Both the position numbers and the translations under genes were made by a program. 41,263 nt of DNA from NCBI GenBank assembly GCA_964419355.1, contig CAYQOZ010000003.1, positions 1 to 41,263 of the forward strand, given 5' to 3'. This document shows, piece after piece, positions 1 to 26,230 of the stretch (positions are counted from its first letter, which is position 1; each line of letters begins with the position of its first letter). Under the pieces are notes generated by a model. It worked only from the letters and a program-made list of their open reading frames with translations. It made no database searches and was not told the DNA's origin. The stretch comes from an uncultured Candidatus Cloacimonadota bacterium. Lineage in GTDB: Bacteria > Cloacimonadota > Cloacimonadia > Cloacimonadales > TCS61.

Positions 1-81
1 TTTGCGAGCGGGATTTATTTTTATAAATTATCCGGAAATGGAAAGACAATTGCGACTAAAAAGATGCTTTTGCTGAAATAA
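1..81 (+). CDS. 3' end of a secreted protein with a T9SS type A-like/FlgD-Ig C-terminal sorting domain (partial)
   Basis: Frame 1 translates FASGIYFYKLSGNGKTIATKKMLLLK*, matching the C-terminus of the 30327..33929 protein (FSSGIYFYRL...KTKKCLLIK). Not in the ORF track because it is truncated. Confidence 0.85.
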   Translation, partial: FASGIYFYKLSGNGKTIATKKMLLLK

Positions 82-103
82 TTTTATTCGGCATTGTGTA
101 AAA

Positions 104-169
104 TTGCTATTAATGTTTGGCGTGTGCCACGATTCTTCTTGCTTAGATTTAACAACTGTTATACACACG
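104..169. repeat. attC-like site 1 (degenerate)
   Basis: AATGTTTGGCGTGTGC (112-127) matches AATGTTTGGTGTGTGC (1371-1386) at 15/16. GTTATAC lies at 158-164. CGTGTG (121-126) and CACACG (164-169) form an inverted pair. Confidence 0.45.
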
Positions 170-190
170 ATAATTTAAAGGAGATTTATT

Positions 191-1363
191 GTGAGAAAGA
201 TTGAAAACACTCAAAGCAAACCGATTAAGCTATGGTTAGATGACATTGAAGATGGAGCCTTAGAACAAGCAAAAAACCTTGCAAACTTGCCCTTCTTGCA
301 TAAATGGGTTGCAATAATGCCAGACTCACATCAAGGTTATGGAATGCCAATCGGTGGAGTAATTGCTTGTGATAAGGTTGTAATTCCAAATGCAGTTGGG
401 GTAGATATTGGTTGCGGAATGTGTGCAATCAAAACAAGCCTTACAGAAATAAACACGGAAACGCTCAAAAAAATAATGGGAGAAATCAGAAAAGCTATTC
501 CTGTTGGCTTCGATCACCATAAAGAAATGCAAGATTTTGAATTAATGCCAAAAGCAGGAAAATCATTAATAGATTTCTATCCAGTAGTTTACAGTCAATA
601 TGATTCAGCATTAAAACAACTAGGGACTCTTGGGGGTGGAAATCATTTTATTGAAATTCAAAAAGGGAACGATGGTCATGTTTGGATAATGATTCACTCA
701 GGCAGTAGAAATCTTGGTTTCAAAGTGGCAAAACATTACAATGACATTGCGAAGAAAATAAATAAGCAATGGTTTGTTTCTGTTCCTGAAAAATACGATC
801 TTGCATTCTTACCAATCGAAACGGACGAAGCAAAAAACTATATGACTGAAATGCAATACTGTGTAGATTTTGCTTATGCAAATAGAAAACTGATGATGGA
901 TAATGTGACTAATATATTTTGTAAGTATTTTCAAAATGTAGAATTTGATGATATGATAAACATTGCTCATAATTATGCAGCGTGGGAAAATCATTTCAAT
1001 AAAAATGTGATAGTTCACAGAAAAGGTGCTACACTTGCAAGAAAAGGAACTATCGGGATTATACCAGGAAGTCAAGGGACTAAAAGTTATATTGTTGAAG
1101 GTCTCGGCAATAAAGACAGCTTTGAAAGTTGCTCACATGGGGCAGGTCGAACAATGGGAAGAAAACAGGCTTGCAGAACTCTAAACCTCAAAGAAGAAAT
1201 TACAAAACTAGATGACCAAGGAATTGTCCATGGAATTAGACATCAAAATGATTTAGATGAGGCAAGCGGAGCCTATAAAGATATAAGCGTAGTAATGGAT
1301 AACCAAGGAGATCTTGTAAAAATATTAGTTGAACTTATTCCGTTAGGTGTAATAAAAGGCTGA
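191..1363 (+). CDS. rtcB: RtcB family RNA ligase (3'-phosphate/2',3'-cyclic phosphate to 5'-OH)
   Basis: Motifs MPDSH, GVDIGCG, GTLGGGNHFIE, HSGSR, HNY, HRKGAT, PGSQG, SHGAGR, DE..AYKD and terminal IKG. SD AAGGAG precedes the GTG start. Confidence 0.96.
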   Translation: MRKIENTQSKPIKLWLDDIEDGALEQAKNLANLPFLHKWVAIMPDSHQGYGMPIGGVIACDKVVIPNAVGVDIGCGMCAIKTSLTEINTETLKKIMGEIRKAIPVGFDHHKEMQDFELMPKAGKSLIDFYPVVYSQYDSALKQLGTLGGGNHFIEIQKGNDGHVWIMIHSGSRNLGFKVAKHYNDIAKKINKQWFVSVPEKYDLAFLPIETDEAKNYMTEMQYCVDFAYANRKLMMDNVTNIFCKYFQNVEFDDMINIAHNYAAWENHFNKNVIVHRKGATLARKGTIGIIPGSQGTKSYIVEGLGNKDSFESCSHGAGRTMGRKQACRTLNLKEEITKLDDQGIVHGIRHQNDLDEASGAYKDISVVMDNQGDLVKILVELIPLGVIKG

Positions 1364-1495
1364 TGTGCACAATGTTTGGTGTGTGCGGTGGTATCAGAAT
1401 GATTCAGCCCGTAAAAACCGCTAAACTCTGAACCGGTACGGTTCAGGACAAAGCCACCGACCGACTGAACCGAAGACACGTTTGTTAGTGGCATT
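1364..1495. repeat. attC-like site 2, GC-rich imperfect palindrome
   Basis: Begins TGTGCACAATGTTTGGTGTGTGC right after the rtcB stop and ends GTTAGTGGCATT. Outer arms GTGT..GGTATCAG / CTGAACC..ACAC pair imperfectly. Internal perfect 8-bp hairpin CTGAACCG-gta-CGGTTCAG at 1428-1446. Confidence 0.55.
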
Positions 1496-1814
1496 TCTGT
1501 ATCTCTTCGGTTACAACATTTATTGCAACAAATTGAATTTTATCAATCATTTCTGACAAACTTTTAAAATAATCTCTGATTATTAAATCTGGATTTTCTT
1601 TTATCAATTTTTGAATTTGTAATGTACTTTTGAAAAGCTCATCCAGTTTTGAAATTAACTTTAGCTCTTGATTAGAAGGATTTGGAATTGTTAACAACGC
1701 ATTTTTTAAATCAAGAGCAAATGGTTTTACTATTCGAATTATAAAACTATAAAAATCATCGTAATTACATTTGCCGTTTTTATTAATATGTTGCTGTTTC
1801 CATTGAATATTCAA
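1485..1814 (-). CDS. Hypothetical 109-aa protein (cassette-like)
   Basis: SD AGGAGA before the TTG start. The stop TAA lies within CACTAAC. Flanked by an 11-bp inverted repeat (1485-1495 / 1837-1847). No recognisable domain. Confidence 0.6.
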   Translation of the reverse strand: MNIQWKQQHINKNGKCNYDDFYSFIIRIVKPFALDLKNALLTIPNPSNQELKLISKLDELFKSTLQIQKLIKENPDLIIRDYFKSLSEMIDKIQFVAINVVTEEIQKCH

Positions 1815-1836
1815 ATCAATCTCCTGATTTCAACTT

Positions 1837-1928
1837 AATGCCACTAATGCCTGTATCCCCGACAAATTCATCTGATTTTGTCGTATATCACTCCACTATG
1901 AGTGTGTATGTGACAATTGTCGTGGATA
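1837..1928. repeat. Cassette-boundary site 3 (inverted repeats)
   Basis: AATGCCACTAAT followed by TATCCCCGACAA (1854-1865) / TTGTCGTGGATA (1917-1928), an 11/12 inverted repeat. Nested CGACAAA/TTTGTCG stem at 1860-1883. Confidence 0.45.
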
Positions 1929-1962
1929 TTTCTTTTACATTTATCTCTCTTCACCTCGCTAT

Positions 1963-1992
1963 CGAAAAAAATAATCTCTCTTTTGTTGTCAA
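1963..1992 (-). promoter_or_regulatory. Putative promoter pointing into the cassette block
   Basis: Minus strand TTGACA-N18-TTTTCG, the same layout as nine other intergenic sites in the window. Confidence 0.5.
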
Positions 1993-1996
1993 ATAA

Positions 1997-2887
1997 TTAC
2001 CCTAACTTTGAGCGTTTAATAAGGTACTGCAATAAATTTTCTTCGAATGGGGTTGCGGTCGTTATCGGATTGTATTCGATGAAAGATTCGTGGCATTTTG
2101 TTTTGAGGTATTTCACGTTATTGTCGTATTCATTCAAATAATCTTTTTTAATTTGCCACGGGTTTACAGTGATTTTTTCGTTAGTTTCGGCATCGATAAA
2201 CTGAGTTTCTCTCTTAAAATCAAATTTAGTTTCCTGCTTATCTTGGATGTGGAATAATATCACTTCGTGCTTATTATGTCTGAAATGTTGTAGTCCATTC
2301 AAAATATTTTTTGGCTCATCGATCATATCAGAAATGAGAATAATGAGACTTCTCTTTTTTATTTTATCTGCTAAAGTATGCAGAATGTCCAAAGTTTCAG
2401 TCTTATTTTGTGGCTGTAGATTGTGAACATTTTTAAGAATCTCATTCAGGTAAGTTCGCATTGAGCGAGGTGGAATGTAATTCGTAATTTTGTTTGTGTA
2501 GGTTAGCAAACCAACTGCATCTTGTTGGGAAATCATTAAATAAGAGAGTGCAGAAGCAAGAGCTTTTGCATATTCCAATTTAGATATTTTTTCAGAAGTA
2601 TAACCCATAGAAGCACTATGATCAAGAATGATATATGATTTTAGATTTGTCTCTTCTTCGAATCTTTTAATGTAATATCTTTTGGTTTTGGCATAAACTT
2701 TCCAATCCAAATTTTTGATAGAATCACCCGGAATATATTGCCGATGATCAGAGAATTCAGCGCTAAAACCGTGGTAAGGCGATTTGTGTAAACCTGTGAT
2801 AAATCCTTCTACAATCAGGCGTGCTCGCAAATTAAATTTATCCAAGTTGACGATAAATTCATTAGAAAGAAAATCTTTTTTTGTCAT
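1997..2887 (-). CDS. DUF58 (MoxR-associated vWA-like) protein
   Basis: G.HKSPYHGFSAEFSDHRQY.PGD, DWKVYA, KRFEEETN, ILDHSASM, ILISD. Confidence 0.93.
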   Translation of the reverse strand: MTKKDFLSNEFIVNLDKFNLRARLIVEGFITGLHKSPYHGFSAEFSDHRQYIPGDSIKNLDWKVYAKTKRYYIKRFEEETNLKSYIILDHSASMGYTSEKISKLEYAKALASALSYLMISQQDAVGLLTYTNKITNYIPPRSMRTYLNEILKNVHNLQPQNKTETLDILHTLADKIKKRSLIILISDMIDEPKNILNGLQHFRHNKHEVILFHIQDKQETKFDFKRETQFIDAETNEKITVNPWQIKKDYLNEYDNNVKYLKTKCHESFIEYNPITTATPFEENLLQYLIKRSKLG

Positions 2888-26153: not shown

Positions 26154-26230
26154 TGGTGGGTGATACAGGATTCGAACCTGTGACCTCTACGATGTCAACG
26201 TAGCACTCTAACCAACTGAGCTAATCACCC
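26154..26230 (-). tRNA. tRNA-Val (GAC)
   Basis: Reverse complement GGGTGATTAGCTCAGTTGGTTAGAGTGCTACGTTGACATCGTAGAGGTCACAGGTTCGAATCCTGTATCACCCACCA. Anticodon GAC, encoded CCA. Confidence 0.97.

Follow-up and report, generated by a model that had tools for sequence, protein, structure and literature searches.

An rtcB-containing block in an uncultured marine Cloacimonadota bacterium is probably a decayed, integrase-less integron cassette cluster

Integron cassettes away from their integrase

Clusters of attC sites (CALINs) and single attC sites (SALINs) that occur without an integron integrase are described by Cury et al. (2016, PMC4889954) and Neron et al. (2022, PMC9024848), and a preprint (bioRxiv 10.1101/2022.09.11.507474) describes how integron integrases insert cassettes at GWT genomic sites, giving rise to SALINs and small CALINs. 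[quoted passage not shown] The window, the whole 41,263-nt stretch of DNA that was analysed, carries near its start a block of ~1.9 kb with rtcB and a truncated small gene, which in our reading (probability about 80%) is an integron-type gene cassette cluster that was inserted at a secondary site and then decayed.

The block is a CALIN/SALIN-like cluster, classed as such with a home-built covariance model, R1, because the integron integrase (IntI) of the genome is encoded on a contig, C99, that does not adjoin the block, while the contig of the window (C3) and the one to its left (C70) are without a tyrosine recombinase. Placed strictly, it lies between SALIN and CALIN. With these elements it shares a grouping of attC-type sites on a single strand over less than 4 kb, the lack of a neighbouring intI, cargo for which databases hold few homologues, an integrase encoded at a distant place in the genome and a plausible insertion at a G/A-TT genomic site; unlike them, it has one intact site out of three, one truncated gene and one gene in reverse orientation.

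Two chromosomal integrons offer further comparisons. As with the VCR sites of the Vibrio cholerae superintegron (L114), the site comes after a gene, is ~125 nt long and opens with TAAC AAACG on the gene-sense strand, the TAAC box contains stop codons or has them close by, and the start of the cassette is complementary to the box of its own site; the far box is ATT here and GTT in VCRs, and there is no array beside an integrase. The sites of a Balneola MAG (L081) share an unequal central spacer (6 versus 2 nt) and the end ACGC TT GTTA, but they retain AAC/GTT, are bulged on the 3′ arm and form an array beside intI.

The block, its flanks and an empty allele

All sequences listed in the first-pass annotation were found at the coordinates it gave, and the block does lie, as it had stated, between two host genes. 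The features of the region are as follows.

1 to 81, plus strand: 3′ end of a large gene for a secreted protein (fn3 and type IX secretion sorting tail) that starts on C70; left host flank
89 to 1996: probable cassette cluster between two convergent host genes, in integrase-free surroundings
108 to 164, minus strand: site 1, a decayed attC half-site
114 to 1372, minus strand: putative cassette 2 of 1259 nt, made up of site 1 and of rtcB, which runs antisense to the gene-sense strand of the site
191 to 1363, plus strand: rtcB, RNA 3′-phosphate/5′-OH ligase, 390 aa, GTG start with AAGGAG upstream
1367 to 1490, minus strand: site 2, an intact long-type attC of 124 nt; the plus strand is the presumed bottom (folding) strand
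1373 to 1847, minus strand: putative cassette 1, 475 nt, a leader from TTAGTGGCATT, the 109-aa ORF and site 2
1485 to 1814, minus strand: 109-aa ORF, a 5′-truncated copy of a 298-aa gene
1842 to 1938, minus strand: site 3, a divergent hairpin with the layout of the site family
1940 to 1996: 55-nt element between site 3 and the DUF58 stop codon, recurrent in the genome
1997 to 2887, minus strand: DUF58/VWA gene; right host flank

On the left side, the last 55 nt of C70 are the first 55 nt of C3, and the C70 ORF at 5188-9039 matches Por_Secre_tail and fn3. C70 spans 9 kb with three large, ordinary plus-strand genes and holds neither an attC-type site nor a recombinase. On the right side, the DUF58 gene (Pfam DUF58, E 1.6e-48) has orthologues of 73-81% identity in all five relatives searched. 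The element at 1940-1996 recurs with 79% identity over 58 nt at C2:46954-47011 (E 4e-7) and with 84% over 44 nt at C159:2352-2395; the 3′ arm of site 3 is part of a recurrent leader-like element. The host bacterium has type IX secretion.

An empty site, which the first-pass annotation had proposed to seek in relatives, exists in two sources. In G004, a genome of the same genus, the stop codons of the flanking genes lie 27 nt apart and the block is absent; a 113-nt contig in two of four metagenome runs joins window position 88 to 1997 through the same 20 letters as in G004. The latter differs at 7 of 63 nt and is therefore the empty allele of a related strain rather than an excision product. 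The junction on the DUF58 side lacks the TT expected of a clean insertion, which counts against insertion of a cassette. Synteny downstream of DUF58 is not conserved in G003, G002, G005 and G001, and the clean empty site is found in G004 only.

A scan of positions 1-2100 returned nine promoter-like sites (7.9 expected) and no terminators. The sole Rfam match in the whole window at gathering score is a tRNA at 26157-26230, and in region 1-2100 matches at E ≤ 10 are at chance level; the GC-rich stretch between the two genes is therefore not a known RNA such as Y-RNA.

An integron integrase elsewhere in the genome

A gene at C99:3910-4845 aligns to positions 2-313 of the 315 in model TIGR02249 with 416 bits (cut-off 265), and its product is 44% identical to V. 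cholerae IntIA and 51% to the Balneola MAG integrase. Judged by its sequence, it is a true integron integrase and the only one of the genome, in which PF00589 matches are confined to C34, C137, C46, C135 and C99. Neither PF00589 nor TIGR02249 has a match on C3 or C70. The description of the block as integrase-less, with a genome-wide search for a tyrosine recombinase as a suggested check, hence holds for the locus and fails for the genome; an intI gene adjoining the array, as in a complete integron, is seen nowhere at the block.

Could the integrase-less state be an artefact of assembly, the block being the far end of a complete integron joined to C99? The integrase is intact, its upstream side runs off C99 after 196 nt and the assembly consists of 203 contigs, which would leave room for such a join. 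Nevertheless, we consider it extremely unlikely: C70 overlaps C3 by 55 nt and extends for 9 kb without a site or a recombinase, the other side is DUF58 followed by 39 kb without a recombinase, and the flanks are adjacent in G004. The polarity of the gene-sense strands makes the closed end, at DUF58, the upstream one, a misfit with a join to C99, and the end of C99 neither overlaps any contig end nor resembles sequence on other contigs.

The preferred reading is a decayed cassette cluster at a secondary site. Its unit would be a gene followed by an imperfect-palindrome site (attC) that folds, as single-stranded DNA, into a hairpin and in this form would be the substrate of the integron integrase. 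Most likely, the block originated by insertion into a secondary genomic site, catalysed by the integrase encoded on C99 or by that of a relative, with the core AAT/GTT visible in the empty allele as the presumed target, and would have decayed after insertion. In its present state, cassette 1 (1373-1847, minus strand) would consist of a truncated small gene and the intact site 2, and cassette 2 (114-1372) of an rtcB that appears functional and lies in reverse, a rare orientation, with its own site reduced to a half-site; rtcB would be transcribed from the plus strand, through read-through or from a local promoter.

A family of attC-type sites in this genome and in relatives

The inverted repeats that had drawn attention to the locus are present. 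GTTATACACA at 158-167 and TGTGCACAAT at 1364-1373 are complementary at 7 of 10 positions, and TTAGTGGCATT (1485-1495) and AATGCCACTAA (1837-1847) form a perfect 11-nt pair. Alone, these repeats are not beyond chance, because three further perfect 11-12-nt inverted pairs occur in the same 2.4 kb and the 7/10 pair is weak; their weight comes from the whole genome. The 16-mer that was said to open sites 1 and 2 (112-127 and 1371-1386) is identical at 15 of 16 positions, and while 6 of 100 window shuffles give at least three matches to its pattern at ≤3 mismatches, a genome-wide search at ≤2 mismatches gave nine matches against none for the reversed control pattern. These genomic matches, the further copies that the first-pass annotation had suggested looking for, open a structured repeat family.

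R1 was built from nine sites of this family, site 2 included, and finds 10 sites in the genome at E ≤ 3.3e-4, one of which (on C2) lies outside the training set. The genome, 1.72 Mb in size, thus contains 10 or more copies of the family, and relatives have as many as 69. An attC-like fold, another of the proposed checks, is backed by covariation: 89.9% of cells in the family hairpin are paired, compared with 25-47% when the partners are slid, and nine of 16 pairs show compensatory changes, values that none of 500 shuffles reached. By definition (PMC4889954), the R and L boxes of an attC site are paired, its central spacer is unpaired and its terminal part is variable, with a length of 20-100 nt. 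Family members, 71-124 nt long, are imperfect palindromes of this kind, with a 4-bp R box, an unpaired spacer of 6/3 nt and a 12-bp L helix.

In two details, the family departs from the canon. The gene-sense strand starts nnnTAAC but ends ATTAnnn, which differs from the conserved AAC/GTT end triplets, and the T of the plus-strand AAT is found in nearly all sites listed. Canonical attC sites have their extrahelical bases on the R″/L″ arm. Here, a single G is bulged on the arm that carries AAT, opposite to both VCR and Balneola sites; VCRs have three extra bases on the arm ending CGTTTGTTA. R1 itself is lineage-specific and misses even VCRs, its only hit on 34 integron loci of other lineages being marginal (E 0.075).

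The signature of circular cassettes, namely a cassette start complementary to the box of its own site, is found in the arrays of relatives. When the decamer that follows a site is compared with the reverse-complemented decamer in front of the next site, the mean agreement is 6.96/10; 17 of 25 adjacent pairs reach at least 7/10, as opposed to 70 of 1236 pairs that are not adjacent and to 1 of 37 comparisons of a site's own two flanks. The flanks of the two cassettes in the window are complementary at 11/11 and 7/9 positions. On 85 kb of DNA from relatives, 38 sites separate single genes of unrelated function, among them TIR, HNH, KilA-N and GIY-YIG as well as an MmeI-type enzyme and secreted proteins. 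In 24 of 26 intervals in relatives, the unit has one co-oriented gene, which is antisense to the site as written on the plus strand; the 109-aa ORF conforms to this rule and rtcB breaks it.

It is important to weigh whether these repeats merely resemble attC sites and belong to a hairpin family outside integrons (REP- or MITE-like elements, 3′-end stabilisers or terminators), a reading that we regard as very improbable. Most solitary copies do lie 10-22 nt after stop codons, of 24 genomes from the same taxonomic family, 18 have sites but only three an integrase that scores above cut-off, the box and the bulge depart from canonical attC, and site 2 by itself is thermodynamically unexceptional. 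However, the complementarity joins the flanks of neighbouring sites and not those of one site, as circular cassettes predict and REP-type repeats do not. The arrays, moreover, are co-oriented single-gene units of unrelated functions, a terminator-like T run is absent, as are terminator-like sites from 1-2100, a genuine IntI is encoded in the genome, and the end motif CGTTTGTTA/ACGCTTGTTA is shared with the attC sites of V. cholerae and Balneola. R1 gives nothing below E 2.5 on the integrase contigs of G010, G011 and G014, so that the orientation of sites relative to intI is not readable in this family.

Three sites in different states of preservation

The three sites of the block, all on the same strand and within 1.9 kb, comprise one intact site, one half-site and one divergent hairpin; the notion of attC-delimited cassettes therefore stands for site 2 and has to be toned down for the other two. 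Site 2 scores 103.2 bits with R1 (E 1.7e-27), although it is one of the nine training sites. The palindrome reported between the two genes, CTGAACCGGTACGGTTCAG, is present at 1428-1446 inside a GC-rich stretch (GC 0.46-0.50 between 1351 and 1500, and 0.23-0.38 in the adjoining segments), and such GC-rich palindromes are the variable terminal part of site 2. The summed contig depth of the site is 5-14 times that of its flanks. Taken singly, site 2 is no more stably folded than shuffled sequence (z-scores -0.4 and -0.8), and the structural case therefore rests on the family.

Site 1 is recognisable only at 110-139, by TAAT, GTTTGG and CGTGTGCCACG, where an nhmmer profile of 18 short-type sites, site 1 left out, matches with E 7e-5 at model positions 3-32 of 71. 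R1 gives it 13.6 bits (E 0.25), and it does not fold (z-scores +0.4 and -0.5). GTTATAC at 158-164 is the likely other end; the borders 108-164 were kept because GTTATACAC recurs at three other sites. An alternative extent of 108-180, with ACACG at 166-170 as in the R1 alignment, was dropped, and the site is decayed under either reading.

Site 3 is missed by R1 at E up to 10 but has the family order: TAAT, a 5-nt spacer, two stems (TATCC/GGATA and CGACAA/TTGTCG) with a single base left unpaired on either side, and finally TTT and CTTTTAC, the last in place of GTTAnnn. Its DNA fold z-scores are -3.9 and -5.3.

Site 2 travels with the small gene

The stop codon of the 109-aa ORF (TTA at 1485-1487 on the plus strand) lies, as annotated, within CACTAAC of the minus strand, in the TAAC box of the site. 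The ORF has no match in Pfam, PHROG or PADLOC, three homologues in a set of 5.8 billion proteins and counterparts in four of the 202 other genomes from its order. Its sequence matches residues ~197-298 of a 298-aa ORF on contig C93 of G022, a genome of another genus, with 85% identity. The stretch of identity between the two genomes sets in within the small gene, spans the entire site, at 88%-class identity to the site that follows the homologous gene, and ends exactly at the ATT end of the site. The perfect 11-nt complement also ties the start of cassette 1 to the box before the TAAC of site 2. From the sequence comparison, site 2 travels with the small ORF and not with rtcB, an assignment made because both the family rule and the homologous cassette in another genus point to it. 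The inverted orientation of the two genes had thus been noted correctly, but it is rtcB that is the unusual one, and site 2 belongs to the small ORF. The opposite polarity, with the plus strand as top strand and rtcB as a regular cassette, was rejected on the gene orientation in relatives and the comparison with G022.

rtcB and its route into the block

rtcB matches Pfam RtcB (E 4e-115, profile positions 1-426) and PHROG 1075 (E 1e-120). The motifs DIGCG, GNHF, HSGSR, AHN and SHGAGR align with P. horikoshii RtcB (1uc2); they contain what we take to be the metal-binding Asp, Cys and His residues and the guanylylated His. With its catalytic motifs intact on this alignment, the gene is apparently functional. 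It belongs to the same ligase family, with all catalytic motifs, as the genes of rtcBA and rsr-yrlBA-rtcBA operons and of phages (PHROG 1075), but it is short and stands alone, without rtcA, rtcR, archease or Y-RNA.

Close RtcB homologues are absent from all four same-genus genomes, in which the only match (G002) is 35% identical, and none of 24 same-family genomes has a match above 40%, those present showing 35-40% identity; neither rtcB nor the small ORF is a syntenic core gene of the relatives. The closest relatives of the protein, at 88, 78 and 77-79% identity, are encoded in tight operons, in one case followed by a DnaB-like gene, and R1 finds no site at any of 18 loci with RtcB relatives. 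Homology to these relatives stops at the borders of the gene. The borders of cassette 2 assume a crossover between the A and T of the AAT box, and its flanks, TTATACACA (159-167) and TGTGCACAA (1364-1372), are complementary at 7 of 9 positions, or 6 of 10 (hand count) by the measure used for the arrays. We infer that rtcB is a reverse-oriented cassette, a rare orientation, beside a decayed half-site, and that it is probably fixed in place now, since its own site is reduced to a half-site.

Alternatively, only the small ORF with site 2 would be a cassette, forming a SALIN, and rtcB would have come otherwise, for example by illegitimate or flank-homology recombination from phage-like DNA, to land beside a leftover half-site. 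This is rather unlikely, yet it accords with several observations: the orientation of rtcB violates the rule of 24/26 intervals, site 1 is a half-site, the 7/9 or hand-counted 6/10 complementarity of the unit's flanks compares with a background mean of 3.65, the nearest RtcB relatives sit in tight operons with sites at 0 of 18 loci, and among the protein families it is one from phages, PHROG 1075, that matches best. On the other hand, site sequence brackets rtcB tightly, with GTTATAC 26 nt before the start codon and site 2 directly after the stop codon, homology ends at the gene borders, and the empty allele lacks the whole block, rtcB included. Reverse-oriented cassettes, furthermore, are a known minority.

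Implications

The block, read as a decayed cassette cluster, adds one further member to a known element type, and suggests that the AT-rich chromosome of an uncultured marine bacterium is dotted with small integron cassette clusters that lack an integrase, an RNA-repair ligase being among the cassettes. According to Neron et al. (PMC9024848), there are few records of complete integrons from the Bacteroidetes/Chlorobi group. For annotation, rtcB should be regarded as accessory here, the 109-aa ORF as a gene fragment and the GC-rich 'palindrome' as a predicted recombination site and not an RNA gene. The locus is a natural before/after pair, with an empty and a filled site, in a family with a non-canonical crossover triplet; the strand-choice and target rules of the integrase are therefore directly testable.

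More speculatively, and on balance doubtfully, the integrons of this lineage may use a variant rule for strand choice and crossover point, the rtcB cassette being an occasional wrong-strand product. The crossover box is ATT and not GTT, and the R box closes with a T-G wobble in the hairpin of one strand only, the other having a C-A mismatch. The cargo of the site family is unusually large, reaching a secreted protein of 2185 aa in a 6.6-kb unit of a relative.

A structured site family in the genome

The motifs listed in the first-pass annotation are all present where it placed them. The 16-mers that open sites 1 and 2 (112-127 and 1371-1386) are identical at 15 of 16 positions, AATGCCACTAA (1837-1847) is a perfect inverted repeat of TTAGTGGCATT (1485-1495), GTTATACACA is complementary to TGTGCACAAT at 7 of 10 positions, the stop codon of the 109-aa ORF sits within CACTAAC, and GC rises to 0.46-0.50 across 1351-1500. 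The inverted repeats are unremarkable by themselves, because three further perfect 11-12-nt inverted pairs occur within the same 2.4 kb; the signal comes from the genome (G000), in which the 16-mer has nine matches with at most two mismatches, versus none for the reversed control.

The 16-mer forms the first arm of the sites in a structured family. On the + strand of the window its copies open with nnnTAAT, GTTTGG and CGTGTGC and close with GACACG, TTT and GTTAnnn, and the middle is of two kinds, short (71 nt in total) or long (106-124 nt). The hairpin drawn on an alignment of nine sites has an outer box of 4 bp, a spacer of 6/3 unpaired nt and an inner box of 5 bp, followed by one bulged G and seven more pairs. 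In this alignment 89.9% of cells are paired, versus 25-47% with the partners slid by 1-3 columns, compensatory changes occur in 9 of the 16 pairs, and none of 500 shuffles reached the observed values. R1, a covariance model made from the nine aligned sites, detects ten sites in the genome at E <= 3.3e-4, including one outside the training set (C2:46065-46147). When the window was scanned with filters off, site 2 (1367-1490), itself among the training sites, scored 103 bits and site 1 13.6 bits (E 0.25), and site 3 gave no match. Site 1 does not fold, and site 2, taken as a single sequence, is no more stable than its shuffles (z -0.4, -0.8).

Cassette arrays in related genomes

The site family is present in 22 of the 41 genomes searched (G000 counted), among them 18 of the 24 other same-family genomes. 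Large arrays occur in two genomes (G017 and G016, loci L157-L170; 69 and 58 R1 matches), where 85 kb of arrays hold 38 sites between single genes of unrelated function. The cargo includes TIR, HNH, KilA-N, GIY-YIG, MmeI-type enzyme and methyltransferase genes, several of them defence-like (TIR, MmeI-type enzyme, HNH, GIY-YIG), as well as numerous secreted proteins bearing a type IX sorting tail; at 1006, 1071 and 2185 aa, some of the latter far exceed usual cassette sizes. No integron integrase was found in either genome at E <= 1e-60.

The decisive integron signature lies in the flanks. When the 10 nt that follow a site are compared with the reverse complement of the 10 nt preceding the next site, on average 6.96 of the 10 positions agree; values of at least 7 are reached by 17 of 25 adjacent pairs versus 70 of 1236 non-adjacent pairs, and between a site's own two flanks in one case out of 37. 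This is the complementarity expected of circular cassettes that open within the outer box, and not of ordinary intergenic repeats. Both inverted repeats that had been read as attC hallmarks in the window are instances of it. An identical 14-nt flank also recurs before several sites near contig ends, in one version in G017 (L157:103-116, L161:106-119, L164, L165) and in a different one in G016 (L168, L169), which points to a repeated cassette or leader where assemblies break.

Polarity and departures from textbook attC

Of 26 intervals between neighbouring sites in the relatives, 24 have their longest ORF antisense to the site in its + strand form, as do all 17 with an ORF cover of at least 0.6; of the two exceptions, one has no ORF and the other a 71-aa ORF in the opposite direction. 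The order along the gene-sense strand of a cassette is therefore gene, stop, nnnTAAC AAACG ... CCAAAC ATTAnnn. The V. cholerae VCR has the same reading direction (TAAC AAACGCC...). Unlike textbook attC, the far box carries ATT rather than GTT (+ strand AAT, not AAC). The single bulged base of the family lies on the arm carrying AAT, whereas in the VCR, and likewise in the sites of a Balneola integron (integrase 51% identical), the arm ending ...TT GTTA holds the extra bases; the unequal spacer (6 nt versus 2-3 nt) is common to the Balneola sites and the family. A T-G wobble closes the outer box in the + strand hairpin only, being a C-A mismatch on the other strand, and would favour the + strand as the one that folds and recombines.

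Organization of the rtcB block

Features of the block and its flanks
1-81, 3' end of a large secreted-protein gene whose start is on contig C70
110-139, recognised part of site 1, a half-site
191-1363, + strand, rtcB (Pfam E 4e-115)
1367-1490, site 2, intact
1485-1814, minus strand, 109-aa ORF, truncated; stop inside the TAAC box of site 2
1842-1938, site 3, significant hairpin (z -3.9, -5.3)
1940-1996, 55-nt element with two further copies elsewhere in the genome
1997-2887, DUF58 gene

Site 2 belongs to the small ORF, which is a 5'-truncated copy. Both points follow from G022, a genome of a different genus, in which the last ~100 residues of a 298-aa gene are 85% identical to the ORF and a site resembling site 2 follows; DNA identity runs from within the gene through the entire site, ending exactly at ...CCAAACATT, beyond which G022 carries a 67-aa zinc-ribbon gene, not rtcB. 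The full-length form resembles a C39-like peptidase at a sub-threshold level only (18 bits against a cut-off of 24, E 0.0045). By the boundary rule, cassette 1 would span 1373-1847. In metagenome contigs, summed depth over site 2 is 47, 34 and 54, versus 7.4, 5.7 and 3.7 beside it, and other contigs join the site arms to other DNA. In G001, TGTGCACAATGT, which opens site 2, occurs without the rest of the site ~80 nt past the DUF58 stop (C142, locus L067); it may be chance (TGTGCACA is a palindrome) or a scar.

Site 1 is a half-site: a profile of 18 short-type sites from which it was omitted matches only 110-139 (E 7e-5). The same boundary rule would place cassette 2 at 114-1372, a unit that holds rtcB reversed and ends in the half-site; rtcB is indeed inverted relative to the small ORF, as first annotated. 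Aligned with P. horikoshii RtcB, the product retains all of the Asp/Cys, Asn-His, His, His and His-Gly-Ala-Gly-Arg motifs, whose residues we take to have the roles assigned in RtcB, and its best match among phage protein families is PHROG 1075 (tRNA-splicing ligase). That the two genes are cargo rather than core fits their distribution. No close RtcB counterpart was found in the four same-genus genomes or any same-family genome, just longer RtcBs of 33-40% identity; RtcBs 58-62% identical occur in four genomes from other families of the order, and metagenomic relatives (77-88%) lie in tight operons without such sites. For the small ORF there are three homologues among 5.8 billion proteins, and 4 of the order's 202 other genomes carry it. 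RtcB joins the RNA ends that ribonuclease cleavage leaves behind; an accessory RtcB would most plausibly serve to mend tRNA or rRNA cleaved by toxins or phage-defence nucleases. A literature query for integron, gene cassette and RtcB jointly, and no wider, found no printed report of rtcB as an integron cassette.

The block has an empty counterpart in relatives. In G004, of the same genus, the secreted-protein and DUF58 genes converge on a 27-nt spacer between the two stop codons, which contains AAT and then GTTATC; in G000 the block starts at TAAT/GTTTGG and the flank picks up at TTTT/GTTGTC. Contigs from four marine-metagenome runs of one study, two of which may be the source of the window, agree with this: in two runs, a 113-nt contig connects window position 88 with 1997 via the same 20 letters as G004. 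Given seven differences in the 63 nt aligned on the window, it represents the empty allele of a related strain, not an excision product.

Site 3 has the family layout, with CTT in the expected place of GTT, and together with the 55-nt element may be a landing pad or promoter leader, or else a decayed cassette. A leader-like element of ~55-110 nt with a TTGACA-like motif occurs at three loci (window 1885-1996, C2:46954-47011 and C159:2352-2395); the C2 copy lies upstream, in gene sense, of a SIMPL-domain gene that precedes an attC. Candidate roles for the element are promoter, leader and attI-like pad.

Integrase and proposed route of insertion

The description of the block as integrase-less holds for the locus, not for the genome. 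The last 55 nt of C70 are the first 55 nt of C3, the contig of the window; neither contig has a tyrosine recombinase, and R1 finds no attC-type site on C70. Hence the lack of an integrase close to the block is real rather than a window-edge artefact. Elsewhere in the genome, C99:3910-4845 encodes a genuine integron integrase, which scores 416 bits on TIGR02249 (cut-off 265) across model positions 2-313 of 315. Its identity is 44% with V. cholerae IntIA and reaches 52% with other integron integrases. The intact gene (C99:3907-4875, locus L027) adjoins nifS-like and recG genes. C99 ends 196 nt upstream of intI, with a + strand ORF starting in its last 55 nt, and this end overlaps no other G000 contig; the cassette array of this integrase is absent from the assembly. 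Integrases above cut-off occur in 3 of 24 same-family and none of four same-genus genomes, drafts that are 61-99% complete, so that absence is not thereby established; among same-family genomes the site family is far commoner.

The block is best accounted for by the route known for CALINs and SALINs (PMC4889954; bioRxiv 10.1101/2022.09.11.507474): an integron integrase whose gene lies elsewhere would have inserted the cassettes into the genome at a secondary site, and decay would then have halved one site and truncated one gene. The bioRxiv paper reports double-stranded targets with a GWT consensus.

Overlaps of 55 nt also link the ends of other site-bearing contigs (C90 to C37, in reverse; C2 to C64 to C111), and on C37 two cassettes whose ORFs (156 and 200 aa) match no family adjoin an ArsR/ArsP-type pair. 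The only Rfam match in the window at gathering score is a tRNA gene (26157-26230, minus strand). Three more tyrosine recombinases of 291-368 aa, below cut-off, lie on C135 and C46; they fit the integron-integrase model at its N- and C-terminal ends, not in the middle, and two of them are adjacent on C135.
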